A DNA stretch of 59,648 nucleotides, taken from a virus. Lineage: Duplodnaviria > Caudoviricetes. Of this stretch, positions 31,272 to 58,621 are shown in pieces. The notes beneath the pieces were generated by a model. The model was not told the origin of the DNA and did no database searches. It saw only the letters and a program-made list of their open reading frames with translations. Location of the stretch: IMG/VR virus record IMGVR_UViG_3300037264_000296, positions 1-59,648 of that record, one strand, 5' to 3'. Every line of letters starts with the position of its first letter. Within the stretch, counting starts at the first letter, position 1. The position numbers and the translations under genes were made by a program.

Positions 31272-32382
31272 TCTCTTTCCTCTTTTTAAGTTCTGTTGAT
31301 ACTGTTTCCAGTATTTGTTGTTTAGTTAAATTATTCATAAGAGGGATGGCAACATCCCACGTTTTAAACACTTCTAAGTTGCTCCCTAATTTAACTATAT
31401 CGTGCTGTAGCTCAGGTAAATCACACCATTGCATACATTCTATTAGATTATTATTTACGAAGCTTAAACAGCCAATAGAATCAGTACAGAGTATATATGC
31501 AGCATCATGTATCATTGCACATATTTGAATTTCATGCCTGTACTCTGAATCATATACGCGTTGCATAAATTCAATTACAGCTCTTAATAATAACTGTCCA
31601 TAACTTTGACCACCTATCATATTACCTGCTGTTCTTGATTCAGCAGCAGCTTCTCTAGGAGTATTTCTTTCACCTAACATACATTGATGAAGTATTGGTG
31701 TACGAAGTCTTAAACCAAATGCACTTGTTACATACCCATCTTTAGTTGCTTGGATTAGTTTATCTTGAGTCCATTGATCTGATACTTTGTATAGTTCATG
31801 GTAATTGGTTTCAATTGCCTTAGCTTCATTTACAGGAATACCACAGTTATTAACTAACGTAGCGAAACTACCCATATAAGTAAGTGCAAATGTGATTGGT
31901 TTAGATGCTTGTCTATATTTAGGGTATTTATCTTTAATACTGTTAATAGATTCTTTTGTATCAACAATATCTGTTAATTTATCTTTGTAATAATAGGCTG
32001 TGTTAAAACAATGTGAGTCTAAATCTTCAATTAAAGGTCTTAATTTATTTGGGTCTTTAGTAATTAAAGCATTAATCACGCTCTCTAAAGATGAATAATC
32101 AGCTCCACAATAAATCATTCCTTTAGGTGAAGGAAAACATTTCTTAATAATCTTTCCATACACAGAATTACTAGGAATAGTCATTAACAATGGACTACTC
32201 ATTCTTCCTGATACTGTACCTCCTAATTTAAAACTAGAATGAAGATAGTAATTACCATCTTCTTTCTGTATTGATTGTTTATAAAAAGTATTAATGAACG
32301 TCCCAAGTATTTTTTCTACTTGAGACAATTCAATTAAAGCATTTAATAGTTTACATATTTGTATGGCTTCTTGTCGTGTCAT
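31258..32382 (-). CDS. Family A DNA polymerase, C-terminal (palm/fingers) part
   Basis: GTVSGRMSS, motif A GADYSSLE, motif B RQASKPITFALTYMG, motif C MIHDA. Confidence 0.9.
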   Translation of the reverse strand: MTRQEAIQICKLLNALIELSQVEKILGTFINTFYKQSIQKEDGNYYLHSSFKLGGTVSGRMSSPLLMTIPSNSVYGKIIKKCFPSPKGMIYCGADYSSLESVINALITKDPNKLRPLIEDLDSHCFNTAYYYKDKLTDIVDTKESINSIKDKYPKYRQASKPITFALTYMGSFATLVNNCGIPVNEAKAIETNYHELYKVSDQWTQDKLIQATKDGYVTSAFGLRLRTPILHQCMLGERNTPREAAAESRTAGNMIGGQSYGQLLLRAVIEFMQRVYDSEYRHEIQICAMIHDAAYILCTDSIGCLSFVNNNLIECMQWCDLPELQHDIVKLGSNLEVFKTWDVAIPLMNNLTKQQILETVSTELKKRKENESN

Positions 32383-34420
32383 TACATATTAGCTAGAGTT
32401 GCTGCAATATCACTAAGCTGATTAGCTTTCTTTCTTTCTTCAGATACTAAATTATCTAATGTAGTTTCTAAAGATTTAATTTGTTTAGCTTTCTCAGTAT
32501 AAGTAATATCTTTAATTTTATTGTCAATATCGTTAATCCAATTTACTATGTTATACCCAGCTAATTGTAGTTCTACTGGTATATCTACTAAAGTAGATCT
32601 AATAGCGTATAAGTCTATTAAAGACAATGTAAGAATATTGTATTCTTGATTTAACAAAGTAAATTTACATGAAGTTATTGGTTTAAATACTTCACGTTTA
32701 TTTTCTTCTTTAAGTTTAGTTATCTTAGCTTTTAATGTATCAATTACATCATCTGTGTTTGTTTCTTTATTCATGGTATCTTTGTCCTGTAGTTAAATAT
32801 TGTTCAAGCCAGTAAGGTTTTATTCTATTGTAAAAATCTTCTATTGTTTCAAAAGTGTATTGTTTATTTTGATAGTTACCATTCCATCTACAATTGTAAA
32901 CCAATTCATTTTCATGTGTTATAGGTCTAATTTCTTCATTACTATTTAAACTATCTGACCTTACTTTTGGTTTATGATTCCAATAACATTTAGCTAATTC
33001 TTTTGTAACTTCTTTGAATCCTTCTAAAGTATAATAATGTTTAATTGTTTTACTAGAATCAATCTTATACCAGTTACTATCTGCTTCAAATTTTAATCTA
33101 GCTTCCACATAATTCTCATATATCTCTTCTACAGAAGAAACTAATAATTTATTTACTGAAGCAAAATGTTTTACATAGCAATACTTAGAAGATTCTTTTG
33201 GATCTATAAATACAAATCTAGGTTTTACATTATCATAAGAAGTCCCTGACTGCCTTCCCATATAGATTAGTTTTAAACCTTTATTAGTAGTGTATGAAAA
33301 TCCTATTTGTAATTCTTTTGGTTTAATCCAATCAAATGCTTTATTAAATAAAACATTTGATTGTTGTTTCCATACTTTATAATCAGGAGAGCTAATAGGT
33401 ATTAACCATAAATCTGTTCCTTCCCATCCATATACGAATTCACCTTCTAACCCCTTGCCTTTAATAGAGTTAGTATTCTCTAAGATAAATAATAAATTAG
33501 GGATTGTAATTTCAAATTCAAATCCTCTAGGATCAAATACTCTTGTGTATGTTGCTCTATGATTCCAATCTGATTTATATCCGCCTACTTTCTTATTTAA
33601 TACAAAACCTTCTGTAGGTTCATTATTAAAATCATTTGGTTCAATAGATTTACTTCTCCATGAATTCCATGAAGGTTCTTTTCTTACTTTACCTAATTGG
33701 TCTAAGTAAATTATGTAGGCAAGTTTACCTGTGTAAGTATCTTTTCTTTCTTGATACCCTACTTTAAGTTGTTGTGGTATGAACAATTAATTCCTCCTCT
33801 GCTAACCTAGCTCTCATGTAAATATGGTTTACTATTTCAATATTCTTTTTAATCCAATCAATATCTTGTATTTGAATTGTAAAATCTACATCATCTTGAG
33901 TAAGATGTGTAAAGTCATTACATATATGTTCATAGTAATGACCAAATTCTGAATCTAACACATACCCTAAACATTCAGCAATATTACTCATTTACTTCCT
34001 CTTCACTATGCATGTGTATATCATGCTCAGTAGTATATTGTAATTCTTCAGATACTGCATGTATAAAAGGTATAAATTTAGGAAATGATCTTATTGCTGC
34101 TACAAATATTGTAGGATCATTCTCTTCTAAAGCATCTTGTAAAGCTAAAGGTAATAACTCTAAAGGGTTCTTAGTATCTACTTGTTTCCAATTAATCATT
34201 CTATTTCCTCTTCAAATAATTCACCAGTATTTACAAATACAGTAAGTAAAGGAATTAGTTTTTTAACCTGTTGTTGTGATAAATGCATTCTTGAATCTTC
34301 TACTCCTAACCATATTCTGTCTTCATTTGCTGATGATGATTTTTGTAAACTACAATTATCACCATAGCAATCTTTAAAGGAATATAGTAAGAATCCTCTG
34401 CTTGTTGTTGTTTTATTCAT
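32382..34420 (-). CDS. Five hypothetical genes between the polymerase halves (130, 339, 75, 71, 74 aa)
   Basis: ORF track; translationally coupled; no homing endonuclease motif seen. Confidence 0.65.
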
Positions 34421-36027
34421 TCCATTCCCTCTTCTTCAAATAATTCAGGAATAAATTCTGTTAAAGTTAATTCCTCCGGTTTAATATCAAATTCAGCTAT
34501 AAGCTGATTCATTTTCTTCTTAATTACTTTTGTACCTGTTGCTGGTTGTTTAGTATCAGTATAATCAGTTACTTCTAAACCAAGATAGTTATACAGTAAA
34601 TGTTGTAAGTGTCTACCTGAACCAGGATTAAACTTTAACTTATGAAACTCTACAATATCTTTAGTCTTAATCTTCTTAGTTTTAGATTTAGATAATCTAT
34701 CTTCATAATCCTTACGCCAAGCTAACTCAATTAATTCATTCTCTACATAAACAATTAAAGGATTAGATTCAACCTCTTTAATCATTGTATTCTTAGTTTG
34801 AGTAAGTTCTTTTTCAGTTACTTTAACTTGTTCAATATCAATACATAAACCAGTTAATTCCATACCAATTACTATTCTAATACTTGGTTTAAAGATAGTT
34901 TCATAAACACTTAACTGATCATCCTTAATCATTATTGGCTCATATTTTTCTTTTACATACCATGTTGCACATGTATCGTACAAGTTATATTCAAGTAATT
35001 GTTGCTTAGGAATTAATCTAATATCGTTAATATCCTCTTGTGCATAAGAACCAGTAAAATTATGTGATAATGGTTTTAAACCTAATACATTACCTGCACA
35101 TGAGTTAGTTGCTAAATAAGCAATTAACATAGTGTCATCAATGTTTCTAGTTAATATATCTAATCCGTAGGTTAAACCAACTTTATCTAATTTATTCTCC
35201 ATAAACAGTTCATAAACAAGTATCTTGAGGTCATAACACAATCCATGTCCTATTAGCTTACCTTTATAGTTTATAAAGAATTCTTTGAGTAATCGTTTTA
35301 TTTTAGAATTATTGCATTTAAACCCTCTTCCTGTTTCATTAAAATCTATAATTTCAGATTCATAATCAACACAAAATGCAATACCATTATGTTCATCCCA
35401 ATTAAATGCGATAGTTCCTATTCCAGCATTCCAGAAGTTTAATGAGAATGCTTCCAAATCTATTGTTAATTCAGGATATTGATGTAAGCTTTCTAATGCT
35501 AAAGTAATCTCTTCATAAGTCTCAGGGTATTGAGCTGAATGAATTACATTCTTACCTATATCATTTTCTAAACCAAGTGTATGATTACTTAATGTAGTTA
35601 ATGATAAATCAATCTTATTTTGTAATTTATTATCATAAAACAATGCTTGATAGTTAATAGATAGAATACAATTAAACTCTTCATACCCTTTAATCATACA
35701 AGGAAATACATATCCATAACTAGATTCTACTTTAGTCAGTTTACATAATTGTTTAAAGTATTCACTACTTGCTACTAATAAAGTAGTAATACCTAATGAT
35801 TTAAGTGCTGGTAATAGTTTAGTAAGATACTCTTTACATTGTGTAGCTGTAACTTTGTTATTAAAGTAATCCAAAGAAAATGTAATAATACTTTCTTTAT
35901 CAGCACCTAATTTAACTAAAGGATTAATATAGTGTTTAAGAATGTTTTCTTGATTTAGACTACTTTCTTTAATTAGTATTGCTATTCTCAGTTGGTTTGG
36001 TGTTTGAGATGTTTGAATGTGTTTCAT
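34417..36027 (-). CDS. Family A DNA polymerase, N-terminal part (N4-type N-domain, 3'-5' exonuclease, start of thumb)
   Basis: ExoI IDLEAF, ExoII HGLCYD, ExoIII YNLYD, FNPGSGRHL, TDTKQPATG. Confidence 0.9.
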   Translation of the reverse strand: MKHIQTSQTPNQLRIAILIKESSLNQENILKHYINPLVKLGADKESIITFSLDYFNNKVTATQCKEYLTKLLPALKSLGITTLLVASSEYFKQLCKLTKVESSYGYVFPCMIKGYEEFNCILSINYQALFYDNKLQNKIDLSLTTLSNHTLGLENDIGKNVIHSAQYPETYEEITLALESLHQYPELTIDLEAFSLNFWNAGIGTIAFNWDEHNGIAFCVDYESEIIDFNETGRGFKCNNSKIKRLLKEFFINYKGKLIGHGLCYDLKILVYELFMENKLDKVGLTYGLDILTRNIDDTMLIAYLATNSCAGNVLGLKPLSHNFTGSYAQEDINDIRLIPKQQLLEYNLYDTCATWYVKEKYEPIMIKDDQLSVYETIFKPSIRIVIGMELTGLCIDIEQVKVTEKELTQTKNTMIKEVESNPLIVYVENELIELAWRKDYEDRLSKSKTKKIKTKDIVEFHKLKFNPGSGRHLQHLLYNYLGLEVTDYTDTKQPATGTKVIKKKMNQLIAEFDIKPEELTLTEFIPELFEEEGME

Positions 36028-41032: not shown

Positions 41033-41896
41033 CGTTTATATTCAACTAAGTTCGTTAGACTTAGCTCGTTTTAAAAGTCTATAATAATGTGTTTTACTTA
41101 TACCATATTTCTTATTTGCAGCAGTAAATCCTATTTCTAACGGATTTAATTCTGGATATGTAGGAATTTTTCTTTTATTACATTCACTAAAGAATTTTTT
41201 ATTTTCTTCTGAATGTTTCATTCCTAATGCTGGTTTTCTTCCATGTCTTTTTATAGATAATTTTTTTTGCCATTCTTCTTTTTGTGCTTCAGGTATTATA
41301 TAACCACCTTCACCACCATCAGCTAAGTTTAACAAATTCCAATTATTTTTTCTTCCAAAAGAAATCCAGTATTTTTCTGCTAAACAACACTCTTCCTTAG
41401 TTAAAAAAGAGTTTCGTAAACAGATGATAAAATTATCTATACCATGTTTACGCATACAATCATATAAAGGTGATTTCTTACCTTTTAAAGCCGAACTTTT
41501 ATGTTGTATTAATCTTGTATTTAAGTTGTTTTTAGTCATACCTATATACATGCGATTAGTTTCAGCTGAAACTAAAAAATATATGTTATACATTATTTAT
41601 TCTTATAAACTGCTTATACTTTCATATAAGACTAGACTATATCATCATCCTCATTTGTAGGATGTTCTGTACTTCCACCCACTTGAGTGTACTCCTTAAA
41701 AGGATAGTCGTTGAACCTTCAAAAGTAACTGCATTATATCACTATGTTAAACCTAATGGTACAGTTATTTAAGCTTGGCTGCTGATTGCCCAATCTTTAC
41801 AATTATTACTCTTTGGTATGTAAAGCTCTAAGGGTGTTCCAGCAATTCACAGAATTTTCTTACATAAATTACTTTATGTAGGTGCTATATTAATTA
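41033..41896 (-). mobile_element. Group I intron in nrdJ (864 nt)
   Basis: P/Q/R/S-like elements AATTGCTGGAA, AATCAGCAG, CAACGACTA, GATATAGTCT; exon ends in U pairing with G in AGCAC; intron ends in G; splicing restores TCV-KPSGT in frame. Confidence 0.9.
41042..41593 (-). CDS. Intron-encoded GIY-YIG homing endonuclease
   Basis: NIYFL...MYIG...RLIQH...E...LLNLADGG; NUMOD3-like GMKHSEENKK. Confidence 0.9.
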   Translation of the reverse strand: MYNIYFLVSAETNRMYIGMTKNNLNTRLIQHKSSALKGKKSPLYDCMRKHGIDNFIICLRNSFLTKEECCLAEKYWISFGRKNNWNLLNLADGGEGGYIIPEAQKEEWQKKLSIKRHGRKPALGMKHSEENKKFFSECNKRKIPTYPELNPLEIGFTAANKKYGISKTHYYRLLKRAKSNELS

Positions 41897-43260
41897 ACAC
41901 AGGTAATATTCTTTGGACGTTGTAACCCTAAATCATCAGCCATAGAATATGCTGCTGATATAGCTTCACGTTTTATAATTTCAAGATCATATTCAGATAA
42001 ATCAGGTCTTTGAGCAATACCTGTTAAACCAATACCACATAATCTAAAGAATTCGTTATTAAGATGCCATGCTTCTTGTAAGATACCATCTTTTAGATTA
42101 ACAAGAGTTTGTCTATAATTAGCTCTAGCAGCATAGTAAATAGTTTTAAGTAAACCTGATGTATCTCCTATAAATTTTGATAAATCAATTTCTGTTAAGT
42201 TACAAAATCCTTTATTAGGTAAAAGAATTTCCATACATGGATTTCCGGTATTAAACCAAGGTGCTTTAGTTAAAGCGGATTCTCCATTGATAAATCCTGG
42301 TTCACTACCACCAGCTTCTTCCATTAAAGTAAAAATAAATTCTAATTCTTTCTTACTTGGTTTGTTATAAAATACTAATGAATTATTAGATTGGAATCTT
42401 TGAGGATTACCTTCACATCTGTTTTGTTTAGCTACAGCAAATTCTTCCCATTCAGGTTGATCATATTCAAATAATGCAATCTGAGCACTTCTACGACTTG
42501 ATAAGATAGTGCCTAACCAATTCACTATATCAAGAATATCAATGCGTGAGAGTAATTCTCCTGCTTTCTTATTCATAATATTAGCAATAGCAACAAATGC
42601 TTTACTAATAGCTTCATCACCAGAACTAATCCAGCCATATCCTTTAAGTCTACTTCCTGCTGGTCTTAATTCAGAGAAGTCAAATACAAGCTTATCTGCT
42701 GGATATTTACCTGCAAGAATTTTACCTATAGATTTACTCCAAGCTTCTGCACTATCACCTATTTTGATAGTCCAGACACCATTTATAAATGATTCTTCAT
42801 TATTCTCTAAACCACCTTTAGCAGTGCGTTTAGTTCTAATAACTTCAATAGCTTTTATTGGTTTAAAGAATCCATTAAGTGTACCTACTTTTGGTTTAAA
42901 CCCTACTCCACAACCCTGCATGAGTAACCACAATACATCAACCATGTCATATACTGTTTCAACAACAATACCTGAACAGTTGAACATTGATGACTCTCTT
43001 ACTTTAGATAAATCAGTACCACCTAACCATAAAGTTCTACCCGATACAGAACATTTTTTAGCTATCATTAATTCACAGAATTCATCTAATTCTAAAATTT
43101 CTGTAGCAAAAAGTTCTCTACCTAAAGCTCTTTCCCATAACCATATTTGATGTAACCTTACTCTTGAACAAATATCTTCCCAAGATTCATACTGAGTTTC
43201 TTCTTCGTTTAAAGGTCTAGCATAAGTACGTCTTATAACTACATCACTTCTTGTTTTCAA
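41897..43260 (-). CDS. nrdJ: Class II (B12-dependent) ribonucleotide reductase, exon 1
   Basis: RRTYAR, SGRTLWLGG, FNCS, GCGVG, RRSA, NPCMEILL...CNL. Confidence 0.9.
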
Positions 43261-46639: not shown

Positions 46640-47657
46640 TCACAACAATGAGCGTAGCTCATTTACTTTATTAAATTCACAATTACCACAATTAACTTCT
46701 CTATTTTCTTCAATAGCTTTTGTTATACTCCAGCATAGTAATAATGATTCTAAATGTTGTTCTACTATTTGAAATTCACAGCATTTAGGTATCTTATCTT
46801 GATACTCTTCTTTAGTTAAGTTCATTCACTTTCCTTTAGACATAAAAATACCCTACTGAAAGGGTATTAGTTAAATTACAAATCAACATAACCTAACATT
46901 GCTTGTGCATGAATATAAGCATTCTCTGAATTAGAATGAATACCTTCTTCAATAAGTAAATTAGCTAGTTTAAATTCATTTAATTCTTTAATCGGTTTAG
47001 GAACTTGAAAACCATTAACAGTTATATATTCAGGTTCTTTGTATTTAGTAAATTCAGATGAATTACTTGTATTCAAATTTGAAATAATATTCCTTGAAAA
47101 ATTCCATAAAATACTATCTTTAAATCCAATAATTACTTTGTTATCCCATAAACACTTATTACCTTCATTAGAAGATAACCATTGCCATACTTCTTGTTGT
47201 GAATTGAATGCATCAGATTCTTCTTCAATAATTTCTACCATAATAGACGTATATGCTTGATTAAACCACTCATCTTTAGGAGCTGAATTAGTGTACCAAC
47301 CTTCATATAATCCTTTAGAATTTGTTCTAGCATACCTAATATCAGGTATATCTGCCCTATTTAAATTAAAAGCAGTGATAACTCTTTCTGCTTGATGTGG
47401 TTTAACTTCAAAAGCAATATTAGGTGTTTTTAAAGCTTGTTCAAGTGTTAATTTTTTCATTTTAATCACATTCCAAAGTAGTAATAAGCTAAGTAAATAG
47501 AATCTAACAACCACACTATCATAGTAAGTTTATGCTGTTTTAAACAATCACCAGTGTAATATATTTTAGCTCTAACAAGTTTTACTTGAGAAAGAGTTTC
47601 AGATATACATAAAACAATAAATATAAACCAAGCTAAGTAATGCATAATAATCTCCAA
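46640..47657 (-). CDS. Three hypothetical proteins; terminator-like hairpin at ~46845-46868
   Basis: ORF track; AATACCCT/AGGGTATT stem. Confidence 0.5.
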
Positions 47658-47730
47658 TAAGAAAAGAAAATAAAAGTAATAATAAACATATCACTTTTTT
47701 CACAATACTGTGCGAAGCACAGTATTTTAA

Positions 47731-48162
47731 TTAAAAAGAAACATGAACCAAATAAGTAATACATCTACTATTTGAAACATACAAACCATGAGAAAGATAA
47801 TCATTAAAAGAATAAATCATTCCTACTTGTAAACATTTATCTTTATAGTCTTCACTAAAGTAATTATTTTTATGAATTCTAACGGGAATAATAAAACAAG
47901 TATTAGATAATTTATCTGTATGGTTTAAGATACTTCCTTCACATATTAAGAATCCTAAAGTTAATTTAGATTTTGAAATATGCATAGGTAATCTATTAAA
48001 GATATGTTCTTTTATATCTCGCATGTTTTCATTGTAAAAGAATTGTCTACATAGACCTTCTACTTCAAAATAATAATCTTCTACTTCAGGTTCTATTTGC
48101 TTAAAGAATCTAAGCAACTTAGATATATTAAATTTATGTTTTGGTTTATAAGTTCTTATCAT
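47731..48162 (-). CDS. Possible 2OG-Fe(II) oxygenase / cupin
   Basis: NHTD ... FND..SHGL (HxD...H). Confidence 0.5.
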   Translation of the reverse strand: MIRTYKPKHKFNISKLLRFFKQIEPEVEDYYFEVEGLCRQFFYNENMRDIKEHIFNRLPMHISKSKLTLGFLICEGSILNHTDKLSNTCFIIPVRIHKNNYFSEDYKDKCLQVGMIYSFNDYLSHGLYVSNSRCITYLVHVSF

Positions 48163-48478
48163 AAAAATCTCCCATAGCTTCAATAGAAGGAATTGTAATA
48201 GGACTATCATCAATCCAAATATCTGCTTTAAAACAAGTAGATTTTTGTTTACCTTCAGTAAATACTATTTCAATACCTAATTGTTTAGCATCAGCAATAA
48301 TATCTTCATTATTTAATGATTTATGTCTGTAAGTAACAAATGTTACTTTATATCCTTTGTTAATAGCAGCAAATACAAATAGAGTCCATAATTCTCTATC
48401 TGCTGTAAATGTTTCATCATAATCTAATGCAATAGATAATTGATATTTCTTTGGTTCAAAACTTAATGAGTTATACAT
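48146..48478 (-). CDS. HAD-superfamily phosphatase
   Basis: ALDYDETFT, VTYR, K, IWIDD. Confidence 0.75.
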   Translation of the reverse strand: MYNSLSFEPKKYQLSIALDYDETFTADRELWTLFVFAAINKGYKVTFVTYRHKSLNNEDIIADAKQLGIEIVFTEGKQKSTCFKADIWIDDSPITIPSIEAMGDFYDKNL

Positions 48479-48529
48479 ATCTAATCCTAAAAAATAAAAC
48501 CCCAATAGCATAAGCTAAAGGGGTTAATG

Positions 48530-49570
48530 TTAATTTAATGCATAATTAGCATCACGGATTAGATCGCCTAATCCAAGTTCTTTTTGTTTATAATCATAAT
48601 CAATTCCCATTAAGTCTTTGACTAATTGAGACATGACATTGCCTTCGTAATAATCAGCAGTAATGTTGTTATAGTGTCTTCTCATTTTGTTTACATTAGG
48701 TAATTGACATCCATACGCATCATGTATAGTTAAAATATTAAATCCAGTACCCTCACATCTAATAATCATTTCGTCAGTAAGATCTGCATCTCCTCCTTGA
48801 ACAACATTAGCTACAATCGGTACTGCATAATTAGTTGGTTCACCTCTTGAATCTAATAGATAACTAAAACTACCTTTCAAACCATATATGTTTTGTATCC
48901 TATGAGGATCTCTAAACTTATCTGGTTTAGTTAAACATCTAGCTTTTACTTTACTAAAGAACTTACTCCATTGATATTCACCTGATTCCGTATTCCACAT
49001 GTTTATAAGTTCATCTGGAATGTCTAATAATGCAGGCATATTCTTTTTAATAGCAGCAAAGAATGCTTTTAACTCTGGAGTATTATAACCAAATATTTCT
49101 ATTGGTTTAGCTTTACTTTTATATCCAAGAGTCATTGTTGCAGGTTTAACATGATCCTTTCTATTTAAGTGTCCTGGTTCATTACCTAAAGTAATCCAAT
49201 TCTCTTTAGGCAACATTTCATTCATCGTTGGTATAACATTAGTATATGGATCTTGACATACTCCAGTGTCAATTAAATTACATTGTTCCATAGACTTTCT
49301 ACATCCTTGCATTAAGGACATAACTTGTAAGCCACTAAAAGTTGCATCAAGATAAATAATATGATTAATCATATTACCTCTTTGTACATTCCTAATAGCT
49401 CTTACATCCTTCATAAACATAGGATGATTATCAGCAGCTACTTCATAATCTTCTAACTGAGATAAGTTATCTTCAGTCCAAGTCATTAGTTCTTCGTAAC
49501 TTCCTTTTAAACCCGCATTTTGAGCTGTACTATATAATAACCATTCGTAAGGTGTATATTCTTGAAACAT
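48530..49570 (-). CDS. RNA polymerase II subunit 2 (N4 gp16-like)
   Basis: MFQEYTPYEWL, LDATFSGLQ, KPATMTLGY, ANVVQGGD, TIHDAY, C-terminal YALN. Confidence 0.9.
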   Translation of the reverse strand: MFQEYTPYEWLLYSTAQNAGLKGSYEELMTWTEDNLSQLEDYEVAADNHPMFMKDVRAIRNVQRGNMINHIIYLDATFSGLQVMSLMQGCRKSMEQCNLIDTGVCQDPYTNVIPTMNEMLPKENWITLGNEPGHLNRKDHVKPATMTLGYKSKAKPIEIFGYNTPELKAFFAAIKKNMPALLDIPDELINMWNTESGEYQWSKFFSKVKARCLTKPDKFRDPHRIQNIYGLKGSFSYLLDSRGEPTNYAVPIVANVVQGGDADLTDEMIIRCEGTGFNILTIHDAYGCQLPNVNKMRRHYNNITADYYEGNVMSQLVKDLMGIDYDYKQKELGLGDLIRDANYALN

Positions 49571-49611
49571 AGTAAATCTCCAATTAAGTTAAACATCCTT
49601 GTTGTTAAATC

Positions 49612-49983
49612 CTATTGTATTAAATCCACTAATTCATCAAACTCATTTGCTACAGATTCATACCCTGATGAATGTCCTTTTTCCCAAGCCATAGAGAAAC
49701 ATTTCTCTGCTTTAGGATTGTCAGTTACGTAATATTCCTCTAACAGGTCTTGTTTAAATTGATTGTAACAACGTGATTCTTCTTCGTTGTATTCTTTCTG
49801 CATTTGCTTATACGCAACTTCATTAAATTCTTTTTCAAATACAAGATTAGTATCTTTGTATTTTTTACGAAAGTCTTCTAAAGATAAATAATCAACTTTA
49901 CTACCTTTAGAATACACATATACCCAAGTAAATTCATCTTTACTTAACCAAGGTTTGTTATTTTTGTAATCAGCATAATTCAT
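49612..49983 (-). CDS. Hypothetical protein between the RNAP subunits
   Basis: FKQDLLEEY...AWEKGHSSG. Confidence 0.6.
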   Translation of the reverse strand: MNYADYKNNKPWLSKDEFTWVYVYSKGSKVDYLSLEDFRKKYKDTNLVFEKEFNEVAYKQMQKEYNEEESRCYNQFKQDLLEEYYVTDNPKAEKCFSMAWEKGHSSGYESVANEFDELVDLIQ

Positions 49984-49984
49984 T

Positions 49985-51196
49985 TTAAATCTCCATTAAT
50001 TGAAATGATCTTGTTGTAGGAATTGTATATTCCTTTTTAATGTTTACTAATGAGCGTTTATATTTACAACTCATATAGTTTAAATGATACCCTAATGGAT
50101 ATAACCTTAATCTAGCATCAAATGAATGTGCTAGATAAAAGAGATTACCTCTTTCTATTACATCATGGTAAATATCCCATGATTGTAATTTCTGTTTCTC
50201 AAAGTTCTCCTTTAAATCAATCTTTTGTTTCTCATTAAGTTTGTCATGCTTAGGTTTCCATTCAAATTCTTCGTCATACTCTAAACCAGGAATATCAATA
50301 CATAACTCAATAGAGTTCTGAATATTAAGTACATCCAAAGGAATAGGTAAATCATGTTGATTATGTTTCTTCAATAAACAATGTTGTTTAATTGTATAGA
50401 ATCCACAATCACTATTATTTATTACATGTTTTGGTTTAGTAATGAATGGTGGAATATACATTGTCTTTTGAATAAAGTTCTGTAACTTATCACTAAACTC
50501 AATCATTGATTCAACATGTAATGTTCCATCTCTATGAGTAACTATATTAAACAAGTCACTCTTAGATAATGCAGAGATAATATCTGCTGCTATCTTTACT
50601 TTAGACAACTCAGAATTAAACTTAACTATATTAGTTAAATCTTTAATTACATCTTCAAAGCTTTTTACTTTAACAGAACTAACTAATGCATTAACAACAC
50701 TAGCAAGTTCTTCATCATGCACAACTCTTTCTTTTGTTTGGTTTAAAATAGATTCATAAGTAAGAACCCATTTCTTTTCTTTTTTAAGATAAATCTCACA
50801 AGCTAATACTTGTTTAACAGCATTAACCATATTTGAATCCAAACTAATTAAATTCTTAATTCTACCTACTACAGCTTGAAATGATTGTTTATCAGTATCA
50901 CAACAAGCTAATAGAACTTCAATAATATAATCATCTGGATTAATCTTTTCTTTAAATAAAGATAAGATTCTTGTACAAAACATTTTCTTTTCAGTATATT
51001 TAACCTCTCCTTCTTTATCGAGATAAGAATGACTATCTAATAAATAATCAATTACTAATTGTTTACATTGTTCAATCTTACTAGGAAAGGATAAGACTAA
51101 TTCTTCTCTTACCTTCCAACAAATATTCTTCCTTGAATAAGTATCCTCTTGTAACATTTGTTCAACAACTAACTCTAAAGTATCTAAGTCACTCAT
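49985..51196 (-). CDS. RNA polymerase II subunit 1 (N4 gp15-like)
   Basis: MYIPPFITKP, NNSDCGF, LDVLNIQN, FYLAHSFDARLRLYPLGYHLN. Confidence 0.85.
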   Translation of the reverse strand: MSDLDTLELVVEQMLQEDTYSRKNICWKVREELVLSFPSKIEQCKQLVIDYLLDSHSYLDKEGEVKYTEKKMFCTRILSLFKEKINPDDYIIEVLLACCDTDKQSFQAVVGRIKNLISLDSNMVNAVKQVLACEIYLKKEKKWVLTYESILNQTKERVVHDEELASVVNALVSSVKVKSFEDVIKDLTNIVKFNSELSKVKIAADIISALSKSDLFNIVTHRDGTLHVESMIEFSDKLQNFIQKTMYIPPFITKPKHVINNSDCGFYTIKQHCLLKKHNQHDLPIPLDVLNIQNSIELCIDIPGLEYDEEFEWKPKHDKLNEKQKIDLKENFEKQKLQSWDIYHDVIERGNLFYLAHSFDARLRLYPLGYHLNYMSCKYKRSLVNIKKEYTIPTTRSFQLMEI

Positions 51197-51261
51197 AAAC
51201 TATCTCCAATTGATTGTAAGAAAGTGTGCGTGAGCACACTCTCTATTACTGTTAAATACTA

Positions 51262-51763
51262 CTAATTAATTGTTTTAATTCCTTCAAAATAAGGAGTCAT
51301 ACCCGATTTACAATATACAATTGTAATAGTTGGTTTAACCTTAAGATGTCTATGTAAGATTTTTAATGCTTCACTTCTTAAAAAAGCTCTTACATAATAA
51401 ACTTTACCTGTTAAGGTTCTAAATCCAAATGTAAATATAGTTAAACTATTCATTTTAAATACCTATTTGTTCTTGGTTTAATTCATTTAAGATAGCAATT
51501 CTATTACCATCAGTTTCATTCCATTTCATAATCTTATTAGTTGTTAAACTAATAATTAATCCTTTAGCAGTAGTTAAGTAATTAGAATCTCTATAAGAGA
51601 CTATCTTAGCTGGTTCATGGTTTAATACTTCAACACTCTTAATTCCTACTTGAAGAGTATTAGCTGTAGGTGAAACAATCATTAGTTTAGTATCATTAAT
51701 AGCACTAACAATGTATGTTTTATTTTTATAGGATACATACGACCCTAGTTGAATTTGTGACAT
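51262..51763 (-). CDS. Two early hypothetical proteins
   Basis: ORF track; TTGGAGA RBS before 51763. Confidence 0.55.
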
Positions 51764-51806
51764 GGTTTATTCTCCAATTTAGTTAAGCCATCCTTGGCAT
51801 TGATTC

Positions 51807-52208
51807 CTAATAAGTTGATAATTCAATTTCTCTTGCTTGGTTTAAGATATGAATATCTTCTTCAGCTTCATCCAATTGTTGTTCAATGTAAGCTTTAATC
51901 GTTTCAGTATGACATTTTTTCTTTACTGCATCTTTAGGTGATTGACAGAAACAAGCTAATTCAATGTCTTGAATTTTAGCTATTTCAACTAACTCATTAA
52001 GTTTACTAATAAGTACTGGATTATTACATTCCAGTTGAAAATCAAAATAGATTTGATACTTGTCACATACTTCATCTCTATTACTGTGATCTACATTAGC
52101 TGCAAATGGATTACCTAATAATCCTTCTTGACCTTTACCTGCTCTTCCACAGTAGCAACGATATGTATTTTCTTTTTGTTTATCACTTACTCTTACGATG
52201 GTTATCAT
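51807..52208 (-). CDS. DUF4326-family protein
   Basis: YCGR...LGNPF...RDEVCDKY...LACFC...CHTETIK. Confidence 0.8.
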   Translation of the reverse strand: MITIVRVSDKQKENTYRCYCGRAGKGQEGLLGNPFAANVDHSNRDEVCDKYQIYFDFQLECNNPVLISKLNELVEIAKIQDIELACFCQSPKDAVKKKCHTETIKAYIEQQLDEAEEDIHILNQAREIELSTY

Positions 52209-52246
52209 TACTATCTCCAATGAAAGACATCCTTGTCTGTGAATTC

Positions 52247-53147
52247 CTAATACAATGGATCAACAACTAAGTTTTTAATCCAATCTAATACAACTTGTTT
52301 AGATGTGAACTTAGTTATTTTAATGTTTGGTTTATTATCAATAGCAAACATTAATTTACCTGTACTACGAGCTAATACCTTTAACTCTTCAATGAACTTA
52401 TTATTAACATATACATCTAATGATGTATGACTAACTGCACTAATTATCTTTACTGATTGATACATAGCTATCTCCAACTACTGATTAATATAAGCACTCC
52501 AGAAGTTTACAACTTCTGCATCATCGTTACGTTCTTTATCTCCAATAACACCTGGATGAATATCTAAGTGTCTGCTATTAGGAGTATATTCATCGGTTGA
52601 ATAAGTAACTCCAGAATGTACAAACCAAATATTGCTACCCTTTAATACCATTTTTGAAATGTTTGTTAAATTGAATGCCATCAATTCATTTGTTAATTTT
52701 AATACTGATACTGACATGAGACTATCTCCAATGAAATTTAAGTTTTTTATTAGGAAAGTATTTAATAAATACCTTCTCAATACCTGTTTTATTTAATTCT
52801 TCTCTTTTAATAGAAGCTTTTTGATTTACAGCAGACGCTATTACTGTATTAATACATGAATGAATTGAACACATTTCATGTGGATAGTAATAGCATTCCA
52901 TAAAGTTAGTATCATTTCCGTATCTGCGCATATCTTCGTTAAAGACAAATTCTTCTAACACTTTTAGTGTTATTTTATTTTCACCAAAAGCTTCTAACAT
53001 ATTTAACCAAATCATTCCTGACTTAGATATTACATGATCAAATACATGTAATGCTTCAGCACTTACAAGTGCTATCTTATTTAAATCGTTATTACATAGA
53101 TTTGTTAAATCTAAACCAAATAGTTCAACATGAGCATAACTAAACAT
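52247..53147 (-). CDS. Three early hypothetical proteins
   Basis: Each preceded by a TTGGAGATAG RBS. Confidence 0.55.
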
Positions 53148-53197
53148 AACTATCTCCAAAAATGGAAGCGAAAAGGAAGTGAGAATGCAAACAAGCA

Positions 53198-53227
53198 TTT
53201 CATTATATAAAAACATGCTTTTAGAGC
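53198..53227 (-). promoter_or_regulatory. Repeated promoter-like element (other copies 53703-53732, 54301-54326, 55223-55247, 55652-55676)
   Basis: Minus strand CTAAAAGCATGTTTTTATATAATGAAA; first two copies identical over 30 bp; each 29-51 nt upstream of a start codon. Confidence 0.75.
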
Positions 53228-53299
53228 GTTTGACTATCTAACAACGCAACAAAAAGAAAAAGAACTTCCCAAACCAATGAAGGTAAGGGAAGTGATTTG

Positions 53300-53668
53300 T
53301 TACAAGTCGAAAATAGCGTCCAACTCTTCGACAGAAGTTTGTGGATGTACAACACGGAAGCTGTATTTAGAAGCTTTTGGTTCTAAACCAAATTGAGGAT
53401 TCAAAGTCATACGAATTGCGTGTTCACCTTGAGCAGTGATAAGGAATGTGGCTTCCATACCAGGTTTGCAAGAGATAGGAACAGTGATGGTTTTAACACC
53501 ATCAGTTGCAGTGATGTACTGATAGCTGTTTTTAGCAGCATTAGTAATAACACCAACATTGATAACTTTAAAGTCTTTGTATTTAGCATTAGCAACTTCA
53601 TCAATAGTTGTACTAACAGGAGCTGCTTTCAGTGTAGCTAAAGCTTTGATTTGATTTTCTTGTGACAT
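53300..53668 (-). CDS. Early protein, possibly an N4 gp2/Drc-like ssDNA-binding RNAP II cofactor
   Basis: 122 aa, own promoter and terminator, beta-rich with acidic-hydrophobic tail; function inferred from position only. Confidence 0.3.
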   Translation of the reverse strand: MSQENQIKALATLKAAPVSTTIDEVANAKYKDFKVINVGVITNAAKNSYQYITATDGVKTITVPISCKPGMEATFLITAQGEHAIRMTLNPQFGLEPKASKYSFRVVHPQTSVEELDAIFDL

Positions 53669-53770
53669 GATATTTCTCCAAAATAGGAATTAAAGTGATA
53701 TTTTTCATTATATAAAAACATGCTTTTAGAGCTTTACAACTACCTACACCTTTCGATGTAGGTAAGAATG

Positions 53771-54001
53771 TTATTGATGAACATGTTTTAAGTTGTTGTA
53801 ATGTGCATGTTCCCATACACACATTTTAAGAAGTGACTTAGCAGACCATTCTCTTACTAAGTCTTTAGATTCACAATATGCTACTGCTACTAAAGCATTA
53901 GCTCTTGCTTGAAGCATTGCTTTGTGATTAGCAATACGTTGTTGACACAATACTAAGTATTGCGCATTAAAGAGATTTTCTCTTATTTGAACTGTTTTCA
54001 T
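53771..54001 (-). CDS. Hypothetical protein
   Basis: ORF track. Confidence 0.5.
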   Translation of the reverse strand: MKTVQIRENLFNAQYLVLCQQRIANHKAMLQARANALVAVAYCESKDLVREWSAKSLLKMCVWEHAHYNNLKHVHQ

Positions 54002-54389
54002 TTTGATTCTCTAATTGTTTTTGAATACGTTTGTTTTCTAACTCAACATGTTTATCTTTAGCATATTGTTCAGATTCTTTAAGCCATAAAGCTATATCTT
54101 CTTCATTTTTAGGAAGATGAGTCTCTGTAAATAAGGACATAATAATACCTCTTGGTTTATAGAGTATCTATAGTAATAAATACTCTAAAGTAATGAAATA
54201 GGGTTTAGTGTTACAAAGCAGATAATAGACGTTCTAATTCTGCTAATTCTTCGTCAGTAAGGAACATTGTAATTCTCCAAAGTTAGAATAAGTGATTATT
54301 TTCGTTATATAAAAACATGCTTTTAGTGAATTTCAATATAAGTGAAAGTTGAAATTTTAAAGAAAGAGAAAAAGAGGATTTTGTTTAGA

Positions 54390-54671
54390 TTATTCATCAT
54401 GATATTGCCATAAAACAGCGTTACATTCACAATGCACAGCTCCAATAGTTAGATCTGTGTTGTGATCGTGATGTAAATGAATTGGATAATTAAAGAAGTT
54501 TTTAGGAAATAACCTTTTGTTTATACTAAGGTTTAATATATCTAAACTTGGTTTAGAATCTAATGGATTATTACAATGACAACATAAGTTGTTTTGTAAT
54601 TTTATATATTCTTCTCTAACAAGTTTTCTTATTGAGTAATGTGTTTCAGAGTATTTAATAGGTAATTGCAT
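54390..54671 (-). CDS. Endonuclease VII/HNH-like Zn-finger protein
   Basis: QNNLCCHC...LHHDHNTDLTIGAVHCECN. Confidence 0.7.
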   Translation of the reverse strand: MQLPIKYSETHYSIRKLVREEYIKLQNNLCCHCNNPLDSKPSLDILNLSINKRLFPKNFFNYPIHLHHDHNTDLTIGAVHCECNAVLWQYHDE

Positions 54672-54830
54672 AGTGTTTAGTGTGTGTTTAGGAAAGAGAG
54701 ATAAAGTTACTATTTTATTAAAACTTGGCATGATTATTGTATGATTAATTACTATGCCAACTTTAATATAAATACATAAATAATTGTAAGTAAGTGTGTG
54801 AAACACACAAATATATATTTACTTCACCTA

Positions 54831-54860
54831 TTGACAATAGTAAATATTGGTTTATATAAT
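54831..54860 (+). promoter_or_regulatory. Consensus sigma70 promoter, opposite to the early genes
   Basis: TTGACA-18 nt-TATAAT; -35 inside the palindrome CTATTG-A-CAATAG. Confidence 0.55.
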
Positions 54861-55000
54861 GTATTACCCCAAAGGGTAAAGTAGTATATTAATATATAAG
54901 TATTACTTCCTATCTTAGGTATCTTACTATCTTATGTGTAAGTGTAATCAGAAGAAATTAATACTCTATGCATCCAATTAAGGACACATAGAGCTTTGGT

Positions 55001-55186
55001 TTAGAATGGATCTTGTCCAATATCAACTCTGGTGATGTAACCATCACGAGTTTTGTATGCAAGGTCTTTTTTTAGATGTAATCTGAATGCAATCAAAGTT
55101 AAATAATTATTGATGAATTCAGTTAGATTTGCAGCTAATGCGAATAGACCTGCAATGATGCACATGGTTTGTTTGAAGATGTTCAT
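55001..55186 (-). CDS. Small early membrane-associated protein
   Basis: Hydrophobic N-terminus, AGGAG RBS. Confidence 0.55.
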   Translation of the reverse strand: MNIFKQTMCIIAGLFALAANLTEFINNYLTLIAFRLHLKKDLAYKTRDGYITRVDIGQDPF

Positions 55187-55293
55187 GGTAATACTCCTGA
55201 TCAGAGATAGAATCGAATTTGATTCATTATATAAAATATTGCTTTTAAAGAACTTAAATACCTACACCCAATTAAGGATGTAGGTAAGTTGGT

Positions 55294-55623
55294 TTAAGAC
55301 TTCATTGGTGCAGTAAGTAGAGCTTTGATTTGTTCAGCTTCCTCTTTGGTAATGCCTGCTGCTTCGAGCTTATCGTTAGCAGCTTTGATTGACAATGCAG
55401 CATTAGCAACAGCATCTGACATACGAACTAAGTTCTTAGCACGAGCTTCAACATGATCAATGGCTTGATCTTCAGAAGCAACCTTCATTTCTTTTAAGGC
55501 ATAACCTAAGCCTTCATTAACCAACTCGAAAGTTGTATCAATGGATTTACCACCGTTGATGATAGTTGAACCAACAGCACCAGTCACAGCACCTAACATT
55601 TGTTTAATACTCATAATACTCAC
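55294..55623 (-). CDS. First early protein (N4 gp1-like)
   Basis: 109-aa Ala/Gly-rich helical protein heading the early cluster; similar size and style to N4 gp1. Confidence 0.45.
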   Translation of the reverse strand: MSIMSIKQMLGAVTGAVGSTIINGGKSIDTTFELVNEGLGYALKEMKVASEDQAIDHVEARAKNLVRMSDAVANAALSIKAANDKLEAAGITKEEAEQIKALLTAPMKS

Positions 55624-55915
55624 CTTTGCAAAGGAAACAGATCAACATTGATCCAGTATATAGAAACATGCTGTTAATAGCAGTCATACATACACCATAC
55701 ATAGCTCATATAGCTCATACAATGACCATAGCGACATGATATGAGTACAAGAGCTACGGTAGTACCAGTAGGTACAGTATCAATCAATGGTGGGGAGTAT
55801 GTTGAGAATTAGGAATGTAGATTGATATGGGGGGATATGTTTAAAATAAACTTACTCTGGTGTGTGTAATGCATTCATACATAATTTATAAAAATCTTGA
55901 AAACTTTTCTAAAAA

Positions 55916-56482
55916 TTATTTTAATAATTCCTCTAATCTTTTTTCTCCTTCTTCTGTAAGCCAACCAGATCTAAGAGTTACTCCACAATCTATTAACTTA
56001 TTAAATCTTGATTTATTCCATAAAGTATAAACTTGTTTTATATGACAATTCCATCTAAGAGCCATACGCTCATCTCTAGGAATATCATCTACTATAAACT
56101 CCTCTTTAAAACCAAGTAATACTTCTAAGTCTGTTGCTATTTGTTTACCGTGTGACATGTTAATTCTCCTATGCATTGATACATAATTTATATTTTTTAC
56201 TAAAACTTTTTCCTAAAAACTTTTCTAAAATTTTAAAAGTTCTTTCCTTAAACCTATCTCAAATTAATATTCTTGGTTTACTACTCCTAGTAATTTCATC
56301 TCTTCTAAAGCTTCTTCAATACGTTCTAAACTCTCCTCAGTAAACCCTTCCACATCATTATTTTCTTTAAATAATAAATATATTGCATGGTTTAAATGTG
56401 TATTTGCACTACATGGTGCATCATATTTCTTAGCTTCATAGCTAAGTATGTGACTTAATATTTGCTTGTAATTATTTGTCAT
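55916..56482 (-). CDS. Two hypothetical proteins near the strand switch
   Basis: ORF track. Confidence 0.5.
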
Positions 56483-56554
56483 GGTTTAAATTCCTAAAAA
56501 ATGCTGGACTATCTTAATTTTTATAGATTATACTATACCCTTACTAAACCTTAA

Positions 56555-58621
56555 GTGATTATTATGAAAATTACCTTAGAATTTAAACATCCTTGTGAGT
56601 TAATTGACTTACTTGAAAAGTTAGCTCAGTGTTATGTATCACCTAATACAAGCATAGTGCCAACTGCTTTACCTTATGATGGGCTAATTACTTGGGAATC
56701 TGCTTATAAAATATTTAAAGAAAAAGGGATCTTATAATGCATGATTCTAAATTTGAAGAAGTACCTTCTACAATACATGAAGTTAAACTAACTGATAAAC
56801 ATTTATCATTGGTTTATAGATGTGTTAAACATGGTTTACTTAATTCACATCCTGTATGGACTGATGAAGAGTATATGAATTTAATTGTTATTAGGGAATT
56901 ATTGGAGAGTTATAAATGAAATATGTAGTTGTAGAAGAATCTGTATCAAATCATTGTTGTTTTGAAGCTTCGGTTATAGATACAACAATTGAAGAACGTA
57001 AACCTGGTCATATTATTTGTGAGTGTTTTGATATTTCACAAGCTAATAAATTAAAGGACTTGTTAAATAACACTATTTATACTAAAGAAGAATTCTTTAA
57101 ATTAGAGAAACTTTGCTTAAGTCTTATTACTAATGTAGATTCTAGCGAGTTTTACTGTGATACTCCTAGCGGAACTATTGAAGCTATTGTCCGTAGTTTA
57201 GTAGAGAAGCTTGAACATATTAAAGAAGGCATTAATAAATGATTTATTATACTGATTTTAAATTTCCTCCTATTAATTTATGGAATTATCCTAAACAAGA
57301 AAGAGATTACAAATGAAAGTAATAGATAAATATGGGTATCCTGTAGAAACATTTAAAGAAAAATATGTTAAAAACTTTATTAGAAAACTTATTCATGGAA
57401 ATATTATAAATACATTTATTTATTGGTTTACAAAATGATTCATATTAATTGGGAATATAAAGGTAGGATTGTTAAAGTAGAACCTATTGATAGGGAACAT
57501 ACTTATGAGAATCTTAATTGGATTGAATGGAAGTTAAATCAAAGTAAACATACTCATCCTAAGAAATGGGATAGATGTTATTTAACTGGTTCAGATAAGA
57601 AGATACCAAAATATGAGGTAGAGTTTGATGTTTAACATTACTATTACATTACAAGAATTACAAAATCAAGGCATACTAAAGCAAGTATTAAATAAATTAA
57701 ACTTAGAGCATGATTATACTAATGTGCATTTATGGCTTACTAAAGATTACTTAAATAATAGTTTACCTGAAAAATACTCATTGTTTATTCCTGATTTAAG
57801 CAAAGAAATACTTTTAGAATTACCAGATGAATGCTTATTAAAAGGTATTCAAGTATGGTTATATAACTAATCTTTTTCACAATATTGACCGAAGGTCAAT
57901 TTGTAGGAGTATAAAATGAATTTTAAAAGAATATACAAATGTAAATGTTGTAATTTAATATTTGAATCCCTTACTTTGATAAAAAAAGAAAATCCACATA
58001 CAGGTATTCCACATGAACATATATGCGATAAAGATACTATCGGGTTAGGTGAGTATATTGGCTATAGAAAATATAGTAATAATGAGGATTAAGATGAATT
58101 TAAATAGACAAGTTACTGAAGAAGAATGGAAAAAGTTAGCTAATGATACTAAGTTACCTGAGAAGGATATTGATGAAGTATTTGATGATGATAAAGAAGA
58201 TGAAAATAATAAAGGAATGGGTGAGAAATAATGAATATATTTGCTGATGAAGAGTTAAATATTAATTTAACTAAGGTATATAATCCAGTAATATTAAAAA
58301 CTGATGAGGGGTTTGAACTAAGCATTTGTATGAGAGATTGGGGGTACGATATTATTATACCTAAACTAGAAAAACATATTCATATTAATGATTCTGGTAA
58401 AGTACTTGTTTTAAGAGAAGGAAAAAGTAATGAATAATGTACCTGAGTTTGATATACCTGTATTAGCTAAGATGAGTAAAGGATTAACTACTTGGTTTGA
58501 TGTATTAGTATTTTGTAAAGGTAATGTATGGAAGTATCAGTTTGATTTAAGTTATTTAACTAATAATGAATCTATTATTGATTGGGTTTATTGTGAGAAT
58601 GTAGAGTTTAATAATGAGTAA
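56555..58621 (+). CDS. Cluster of small hypothetical proteins
   Basis: Eight or more packed ORFs of 60-108 aa. Confidence 0.5.

Follow-up and report, generated by a model that had tools for sequence, protein, structure and literature searches.

A candidate flagellin-type CsrA operator in the mRNA leaders of an N4-like phage contig and of unrelated phages

Background

Flagellin mRNA is the classic and original target of CsrA, which is itself among the most widespread post-transcriptional regulators of bacteria. Two CsrA sites (BS1 and BS2) have been described in the leader of Bacillus subtilis hag, the second lying over the Shine-Dalgarno (SD) sequence, two corresponding sites are predicted in C. 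difficile fliC, and FliW, CsrA and flagellin constitute a partner switch. Here we analyse three small hairpins in the intercistronic leaders of IMG/VR record IMGVR_UViG_3300037264_000296, an incomplete N4-like (Schitoviridae-type) phage contig of 59,648 nucleotides (nt), hereafter referred to in its whole length as the window; one of these hairpins precedes the gene for the large subunit of the phage RNA polymerase RNAP II. Sequence comparison suggests that the hairpins are probably a copy, carried by the phage, of the flagellin-type CsrA operator, which would act on mRNA, and that the architecture of the cassettes in which they lie is that of the flagellin-mRNA operator, with a hairpin site (BS1) and a Shine-Dalgarno site (BS2).

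The resemblance to the flagellin leaders of Selenomonadaceae/Anaerovibrio extends to a TAGGATT box and to its spacing. Unlike the flagellin operator, the phage cassette occupies gaps between the cistrons of a lytic-type phage, where it is followed by an RNA polymerase subunit gene or by small open reading frames (ORFs), it occurs in three copies within 2.7 kb with an invariant loop, and no phage gene for CsrA or FliW accompanies it: PF02599 (CsrA) gave no match in the window, positive controls being detected, and no FliW is encoded there.

Three other systems are comparable in part. The sites of RsmA, RsmE and RsmF on mRNAs, and those on the sponge RNAs RsmY, RsmZ, RsmV, RsmW and CsrB, follow the same consensus as the phage hairpins, display GGA in a loop and occur as several closely spaced sites per RNA; unlike the sponges, which are dedicated non-coding RNAs, the phage sites belong to coding mRNAs and stand immediately 5' of ribosome sites. 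The hairpin promoters of phages N4 and LUZ7 are likewise small, with a conserved loop and variable stems, and stand just upstream of early genes, but they present the purine loop on the opposite strand and have a shorter loop, and the elements described here are also found in phages for which no RNA polymerase of their own was detected. The promoter-early stem-loops of T4-type phages are mobile regulatory cassettes made up of a host-type promoter and a terminator-like stem-loop. They, too, are short intergenic modules under conservation, bordering small and variable early genes and coinciding with gene-swap boundaries, whereas the present cassette has neither promoter nor terminator and carries a CsrA-type loop.

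Control of a gene of an extrachromosomal element by host CsrA has been described for the ColE7 lysis gene cel, which CsrA represses (PMC2896534); this concerns a plasmid colicin operon in Escherichia coli, with no conserved cassette shared among phages. In the literature surveyed, mostly at the level of abstracts, work on phages and Csr concerns either csrA genes carried by phages or effects of Csr/Rsm on prophages and defence systems, and no description of CsrA sites in phage leaders was found there, including in PMC7366521 and PMC8545117. CsrA sites as such being known already, what would be new is a conserved, apparently mobile cassette that places them before the genes of unrelated phages.

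Results and discussion

Three hairpin cassettes in phage leaders

Each hairpin belongs to a compact cassette, the three being numbered as follows:

49568..49614, minus strand: cassette 1, with TAGGATT at 49608-49614, the hairpin AAC-AAGGAT-GTT at 49592-49603, GGAG at 49578-49581 and, at 49568-49570, the ATG of the RNAP II large-subunit gene.
51761..51809, minus strand: cassette 2, with TAGGAAT at 51803-51809, the hairpin GCC-AAGGAT-GGC at 51787-51798, GGAG at 51772-51775 and, at 51761-51763, the ATG of a 102-aa gene.
52206..52249, minus strand: cassette 3, with TAGGAAT at 52243-52249, the hairpin AGAC-AAGGAT-GTCT at 52225-52238, GGAG at 52215-52218 and, at 52206-52208, the ATG of a 133-aa gene, whose start the ORF list places at TTG 52220.

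A preliminary description of this DNA had claimed three mRNA hairpins with the same hexaloop and different, compensated stems, and both sequences and coordinates are exactly as it gave them. The core CAAGGAUG is invariant in all three intergenic hairpins, and the stems differ while being fully complementary (variable parts AA/TT, GC/GC and AGA/TCT at sites 1, 2 and 3, respectively). At each site the loop AAGGAU is closed by a C-G pair; its terminal A and U can also pair, leaving an AGGA tetraloop on a stem of 4-5 pairs. The layout common to the cassettes is TAGGAWT, 6-7 nt including the 5' arm, CAAGGATG, the 3' arm, 6-11 nt, GGAG, 6-8 nt and ATG, with 27-33 nt from the start of the core to the ATG. 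The same description had taken the UAG of the upstream UAGGA for a stop codon, had reported a UUGGAGA ribosome site downstream and had assigned one of the leaders to RNAP II subunit 2. Indeed, the upstream ORF ends at the TAG of the box at 3/3 sites, TTGGAGA lies 3' of the hairpin at all three, and cassette 1 precedes the RNAP II large subunit (phrog_2051, 5e-67). From GGA to GGA, the offset is 14-15 nt between box and loop and 14, 18 and 17 nt (sites 1, 2 and 3) between loop and ribosome site.

CAAGGATG occurs six times in the window, always on the minus strand, against 1.04 copies expected, a number reached in 0 of 100 shuffles. The copies at 49302 and 29058 lie inside coding sequence and have no extra Watson-Crick pair. 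Conventional identities for the hairpins were tried and rejected. The 10 terminator-like sites in 48400-56900 all fall elsewhere than the three hairpins, no sigma-70 promoter-like site was seen on the sense strand at their positions (promoter-like matches numbering 24 versus 52.6 in shuffles), and the AUG of the hairpin, considered by eye as a start codon, is out of frame with the genes at sites 1 and 3 and meets an immediate stop at site 2. A scan of 47000-57000 against Rfam found no known family at the hairpins, the only hit being a sub-threshold trpB-motif at 48489-48579 (E 0.69).

Fit to CsrA sites and to bacterial flagellin leaders

The consensus reported for RsmA and RsmF is CANGGAYG, presented in a stem-loop, and that reported for CsrA from systematic evolution of ligands by exponential enrichment (SELEX) is RUACARGGAUGU, with ACA and GGA fully conserved and GGA in a hairpin loop. 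The phage core CAAGGAUG agrees with CANGGAYG at 8/8 positions at all three sites. Sites 1 and 3 carry ACAAGGAUGU, matching the ACARGGAUGU part of the SELEX consensus, and by our own count 10/12 SELEX positions are matched at site 1 and 11/12 at site 3. The GGA lies in the loop of a short hairpin at 3/3 sites, with a second GGA over the Shine-Dalgarno sequence at a distance suitable for bridging by one dimer, the range bridged by a CsrA dimer being about 10-63 nt, with an optimum near 18. Moreover, the predicted site BS1 of C. difficile fliC contains ACAAGGATGT, the 10-mer of window sites 1 and 3.

A further link to flagellin came from the cellular control scan described below, in which a stem-bearing match in a Selenomonadaceae genome (L111) proved to be a flagellin-gene leader (Flagellin_N 1e-28, Flagellin_C 2e-13). 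CA-N-GGA-Y-G is present in all 18 related flagellin leaders from Selenomonadaceae/Anaerovibrio, 33-41 nt before the ATG (69 nt in one), and CA[AG]GGAGG lies over the ribosome site in all of them but one (L241). Stems are mostly present, with 0-5 extra pairs, and their sequences differ between leaders. Six of the 18 have a CGACA[A/T]GGATGTC(G) hairpin with TAGGATT four bases upstream of it; in L225, which is the same locus as L111, TAGGATT stands three bases before a hairpin of its own. CsrA was encoded in all five genomes with such leaders that were checked, at ~85 bits.

When a covariance model was built from 13 bacterial flagellin leaders only, first rank in the window went to site 1 at 17.5 bits (E 0.002) and fifth to site 3 at 12.9 bits (E 0.08); ranks 2-3 aligned only over the ribosome-site part. 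With plain ribosome sites ranking this high and site 2 missed, the model discriminates only in part. The model also touched a further copy of the 10-mer:

56587..56596, minus strand: weak candidate for a fourth copy, ACAAGGATGT, flanked by a single extra pair, lacking a ribosome site in the vicinity and situated ~105 nt before the first ORF of the minus strand (56264-56482).

Here the match covered model positions 8-17 only (E 4.2), and this copy may be a chance occurrence.

Distribution and covariation among unrelated phages

Viral sequences were scanned with a pattern in which the box, the 8-mer core and GGAG were fixed and the stem was left free. The scans returned 22 distinct sequences, nine of them with at least two further Watson-Crick pairs. 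In eight of these nine the match lies in an intergenic gap and is followed at once by a ribosome site and start codon; for the ninth (L071), the sequence shown contains no start codon. The same pattern matched at least 120 distinct sequences in bacterial and archaeal genomes, and among the matches listed such stems occur in 9 of 120, about the chance rate. The difference between viral (9/22) and listed cellular matches (9/120), obtained with no stem requirement, gives a Fisher p = 2e-4, and this comparison is free of the hand-picking bias of the 18-row alignment considered next.

Altogether, 42 copies of CAAGGATG were collected from the window, a metagenomic relative (L001, see below) and ten viral records, 18 of them with at least two extra pairs and 24 with 0-1. 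A ribosome site and start codon follow 16 of the former and 4 of the latter. In an alignment of 18 phage copies, the core CAAGGAUG is invariant, 13 of the rows having been retrieved with patterns that fix it. The pair adjoining the core is AU in 10 rows, CG in 6 and GC in 2, and is never unpaired; the next pair out is GC in 9, CG in 4, AU in 2 and GU in 1, being unpaired in 2. The covariation score of this alignment was reached by 0 of 500 shuffles, and sliding the partner columns lowered the proportion of paired cells from 80% to 18-44%, in line with the earlier claim that the stems covary. The U after GGA and the closing C-G are likewise constant, and the downstream ribosome sites vary (GGAG, AGGAG, GGGAG, GAGG, AGGAA), a combination that recognition by a protein fits better than simple pairing with the anti-SD sequence. 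The distance from hairpin to ribosome site ranges from 2 to 16 nt across phages.

The cassette is present in at least 10 other viral records. Five of the phages bearing it are complete (44-89 kb, 39-41% G+C) and have 1-3 copies each, some without the box, and across cassette-bearing phages G+C content ranges from 29 to 48%. All-against-all BLASTP (E <= 1e-4) between the window and the five complete phages gave one weak match only, and the capsid and polymerase homologues of other cassette phages are 27-52% identical to those of cultured phages. PF02599 had no match in any of the five complete phages, positive controls being detected. With a single weak protein match and no CsrA gene found between the window and these five phages, the shared partner of the element is more likely a host component.

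Some individual copies have unusual surroundings. In two 44-kb phages (L092 ~17316-17339 and L094 ~19358-19381, both minus strand), ACAAGGATGT with a G-U-extended stem stands between a stop codon and an intrinsic terminator, a position that is 3'-UTR-like or small-RNA-like rather than that of a leader (UTR, untranslated region). In L056 (7826-7849, minus strand), inspection by eye places a GG-CAAGGATG-CC hairpin inside the 17-nt spacer of a TTGACA/CATAAT promoter-like site.

Conservation and gene exchange in a relative

The genes that flank cassette 1 are, in order of coordinates:

48530-49570, minus strand: RNAP II large subunit (N4 gp16-like; phrog_2051, 5e-67; PF00940), downstream of cassette 1.
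49612-49983, minus strand: a 123-aa gene between the two RNAP II subunit genes, with cassette 1 downstream of it.
49985-51196, minus strand: RNAP II small subunit (N4 gp15-like; phrog_2166, 1e-45).

Viral contigs searched with the RNAP II protein, and with its alignment, yielded no relative. A metagenome scan gave one, L001, whose RNAP II large subunit is 73% identical over residues 146-346. The preliminary description had named conservation in relatives as a check of the hairpins, and L001 keeps two of them. Cassette 1 is identical at 40/46 aligned bases, being unchanged from the box through most of the hairpin, with the outermost stem pair lost, and cassette 2 at 41/42, the flanking coding DNA being 67% identical. 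The genes that follow are not the same: in L001 both cassettes precede different downstream genes than in the window (for cassette 1, a different small ORF). Contigs from other samples (four runs), in turn, skip 49612-49983, with joints from 49616 to 49979, from 49614 to 49975 and from 49572 to 49979 that fall at cassette or ribosome-site sequences. With the cassettes kept in L001 before changed genes, and with 49612-49983 skipped in other contigs, the cassette behaves as a module more durable than its neighbouring genes.

Two further differences between L001 and the window concern the polymerase genes. The RNAP II large-subunit gene of L001 is interrupted at 2958-3828 by ~870 nt that contain a 186-aa ORF, likely an intron or a homing-endonuclease insertion, the window copy being uninterrupted; the database homologues P0005-P0007 (201-262 aa) fit such split forms. 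L001 also has a peptide deformylase gene (764-1171) between an N4-type hairpin and the RNAP II small-subunit gene, where the window has none; in the protein atlas this deformylase falls only in viral and Bacillota clusters, with no usable host signal.

Proposed mechanism and alternative explanations

If the hairpins are CsrA operators, they would function as RNA elements in the intercistronic leaders of phage mRNAs, with AAGGAU shown in the loop and the UAGGAWU box single-stranded. A dimer of the host CsrA family would bind the loop GGA and bridge to the Shine-Dalgarno GGA or to the upstream box, which would change how readily the 30S subunit reaches the next cistron. The level of free CsrA, set, depending on the host, by FliW or by sponge RNAs of the CsrB/Rsm type, would then govern how much RNAP II large subunit and how much of two small early proteins is translated, and abundant early phage mRNA could in turn soak up CsrA. 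On a wider scale, and only tentatively, we consider that a mobile flagellin-type CsrA leader cassette may have spread horizontally among unrelated phages, plugging chosen genes (here the RNAP II catalytic subunit) into the CsrA circuit of the host, or else turning early mRNA into a CsrA sponge.

If this is true, the mRNAs of lytic phages would be direct targets of CsrA, a new layer of phage-host coupling through which a phage reads the physiological or motility state of its host at the level of translation. Phage development would be gated by the signal that governs flagellin synthesis (free CsrA, as set by FliW and flagellar export, or by Csr/Rsm sponges), or early phage mRNA could reprogram the host as a CsrA sponge. 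The cassette would also provide a simple sequence marker for such phages in metagenomes and possibly a clue to the type of host (CsrA-positive bacteria that use Shine-Dalgarno sequences), and it would explain why the same short intergenic module marks gene-swap boundaries.

Several observations weigh against a CsrA operator. The predicted hairpin energies are weak (about 0, -4.7 and -3.6 kcal/mol for sites 1, 2 and 3), site 1 taken alone is unfolded at 37 C, and the leaders fold no better than shuffled sequences, all z-scores being non-significant; given these marginal energies and z-scores, the structural support comes from covariation and not from energy. The 18-row alignment was itself hand-picked from rows already showing stems or ribosome sites and leans towards structure, and the viral scans fixed CAAGGATG, which introduces ascertainment bias. 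A scan with a relaxed loop used a box-to-core gap of 7-8, unfit for window sites 1 and 2 (gap 6), and its 27 loci, with only two CAAGGATG hairpins with stems, say little on loop variation. In the phages the loop N is always A and Y always U, whereas N is A in 7, C in 4, U in 4 and G in 3 of the 18 flagellin leaders, an invariance that might reflect a binder of narrower specificity or a recent common origin. The flagellin-leader model returned no site 2 at E <= 10. The CsrA-type reading of the preliminary description is borne out in part: the fit to the consensus, the flagellin-leader architecture in CsrA-encoding bacteria and the 10-mer of fliC BS1 agree with it. Some copies lie outside leaders, two just before intrinsic terminators and one in a promoter-like spacer, and the cassette also stands after a capsid gene. 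The assignment of the hairpins to three early-gene leaders, correct for the window, was too narrow for a cassette that is common to unrelated phages. Finally, were active CsrA to repress, the phage would be throttled in fast-growing hosts of the enteric type, with no obvious benefit.

Among the alternatives, the hairpins could be the operator or processing site of another RNA-binding protein or nuclease, of phage or host origin, for instance a protein that represses the translation of early genes, or an endonuclease whose cut separates cistrons or stabilises the mRNA downstream. The invariant 8-mer and the box at fixed distance are tighter in phages than the CsrA sites of flagellin leaders, and many ORFs of the window belong to no known family, either of which would suit such a partner. 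With a single weak BLASTP match between the window and the five complete cassette phages, a binder encoded by the phages themselves would need to differ from phage to phage or to have diverged beyond recognition, and we regard this explanation as unlikely.

We find it quite unlikely that the element works through the ribosome alone, as a stand-by site or enhancer in which UAGGA, the loop AAGGA and GGAG pair with the 3' end of 16S rRNA and hold the 30S subunit near the start codon with no regulatory protein. All three motifs are Shine-Dalgarno-like, on the sense strand and, from the core, within 27-33 nt of the ATG, and the occurrence of the element in phages of 29-48% G+C would fit a universal partner such as the ribosome. 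Yet positions that are useless for anti-SD pairing (the closing C-G, the A after C and the U after GGA) are invariant while the adjoining ribosome sites vary freely, the loop does not use stronger SD variants, and the same architecture occurs in flagellin leaders described as CsrA sites.

That the cassette has no function of its own, being kept merely as homology for the swapping of small genes, appears very improbable. Such a linker would account for cassettes 1 and 2 being kept in the window and L001 before different genes, and for the joints at cassette or ribosome-site sequences in contigs that skip 49612-49983, but it leaves unexplained both the compensatory stem changes around an invariant loop and the fact that unrelated phages share the element with flagellin leaders of bacteria. 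The shuffling of genes at the cassettes is more likely a side effect.

Scarcely credible, and largely refuted, is the reading in which the virion RNA polymerase or RNAP II would use the three hairpins as N4-type DNA promoters, of the kind known from coliphage N4 and LUZ7. N4-like phages do place small hairpin promoters just upstream of early genes, and in N4 itself the RNAP II gene gp15 is preceded by one and the gp2 start, at ~12 nt, by another, but the N4 sense strand has a pyrimidine loop, TTC or TCC, closed by GC (template G-R-A), while here the sense loop is purine-rich and 4-6 nt long and the template reads AUCCUU, lacking the N4 combination of a 3-nt loop, a central template purine, C:G closure, sense T-Y-C and a 5-7 bp stem; the spacing from hairpin to ribosome site is not fixed (2 to 16 nt), PF00940 (the T7-like RNA polymerase family) was found in 0 of 10 other cassette-bearing viral records (5 complete), the window serving as a weak positive control at 21.8 bits, and a separate family of hairpins in the window has the N4 promoter architecture.

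Probable phage-polymerase promoters and other features of the contig

In N4, the hairpins before gp1, gp2 and gp15 have a GC-closed stem and a TTC or TCC loop on the sense strand. The window family that resembles them is GC-closed, with sense-strand loops TTC, TAC, TCAC or TTAC, and lies on the minus strand, with loops at 51233, 47716, 46656, 40421, 26900 and perhaps 54802; TGC-T(N)C-GCA is found at 47716, 46656, 40421 and 26900. The member nearest to the cassettes is the following:

51223..51240, minus strand: N4-type hairpin AGTGTGC-TCAC-GCACACT (loop at 51233), before the RNAP II small-subunit gene and outside the cassette family.

This hairpin and its 3' flank are identical in L001, where 59/64 aligned bases are shared overall. 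Their architecture suggests that the members of the family are likely promoters of the phage's own RNA polymerases, across the early and middle regions, and that 51223-51240 likely serves the RNAP II small-subunit gene in this way. Cassette 1 would in that case be internal to a polycistronic mRNA that also encodes the RNAP II small subunit, which fits a role of the cassette at the RNA level. Several of the N4-type hairpins are followed by a T-rich run with GAA (e.g. GTTTTGAA after 26900).

The window is a whole viral contig, linear, ~80% complete and of ~30% G+C. It codes for a virion RNA polymerase of 4332 aa (6448-19446, plus strand; phrog_2206, 5e-249) and for the N4-type primase, exonuclease, single-stranded DNA-binding protein and ATPase; many of its ORFs have no known family. 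Early and middle genes, including all those around the hairpins, are on the minus strand from about 56500 downwards, and the plus strand carries the late genes, located at either end of the contig, which indicates that the contig is broken inside the late region. Comparison of 48000-53000 with cultured phages, near and distant, gave no nucleotide match, the closest cultured RNAP II homologues being <36% identical, and no tRNA gene was found in the window. For the virion RNA polymerase, the best-scoring family-profile match covers only the C-terminal quarter, and the ORF is far longer than the roughly 3500 residues reported for schitovirus virion RNA polymerases.

The DNA polymerase is represented by two ORFs (34417-36027 and 31258-32382, minus strand, both phrog_17), with other ORFs between them, including 32767-33786 (phrog_2475); the gene in 31258-36027 is split or invaded. 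A GIY-YIG homing endonuclease gene (41042-41593, minus strand) lies just downstream of a ribonucleotide-reductase-like gene (41890-43260).

Upstream of the cassettes, a 28-nt box, CTCTAAAAGCATGTTTTTATATAATGAA, is repeated on the minus strand at 53199-53226, 53704-53731 and 54301-54328, in two exact copies and one with 2 mismatches. A strong ACCTACA...TGTAGGT hairpin precedes the copy at 53704, and a similar one at 55259-55286 is followed by a more diverged version of the box; hairpin and box possibly form a combined terminator and promoter. Because the box itself contains an ATG, the ORF called at 52722-53216 is doubtful. Lastly, a perfect sigma-70 consensus, TTGACA-18-TATAAT (12/12), is located at 54831-54860 on the plus strand, in antisense orientation to the early genes; a 10/12 site on the minus strand stands back to back with it.

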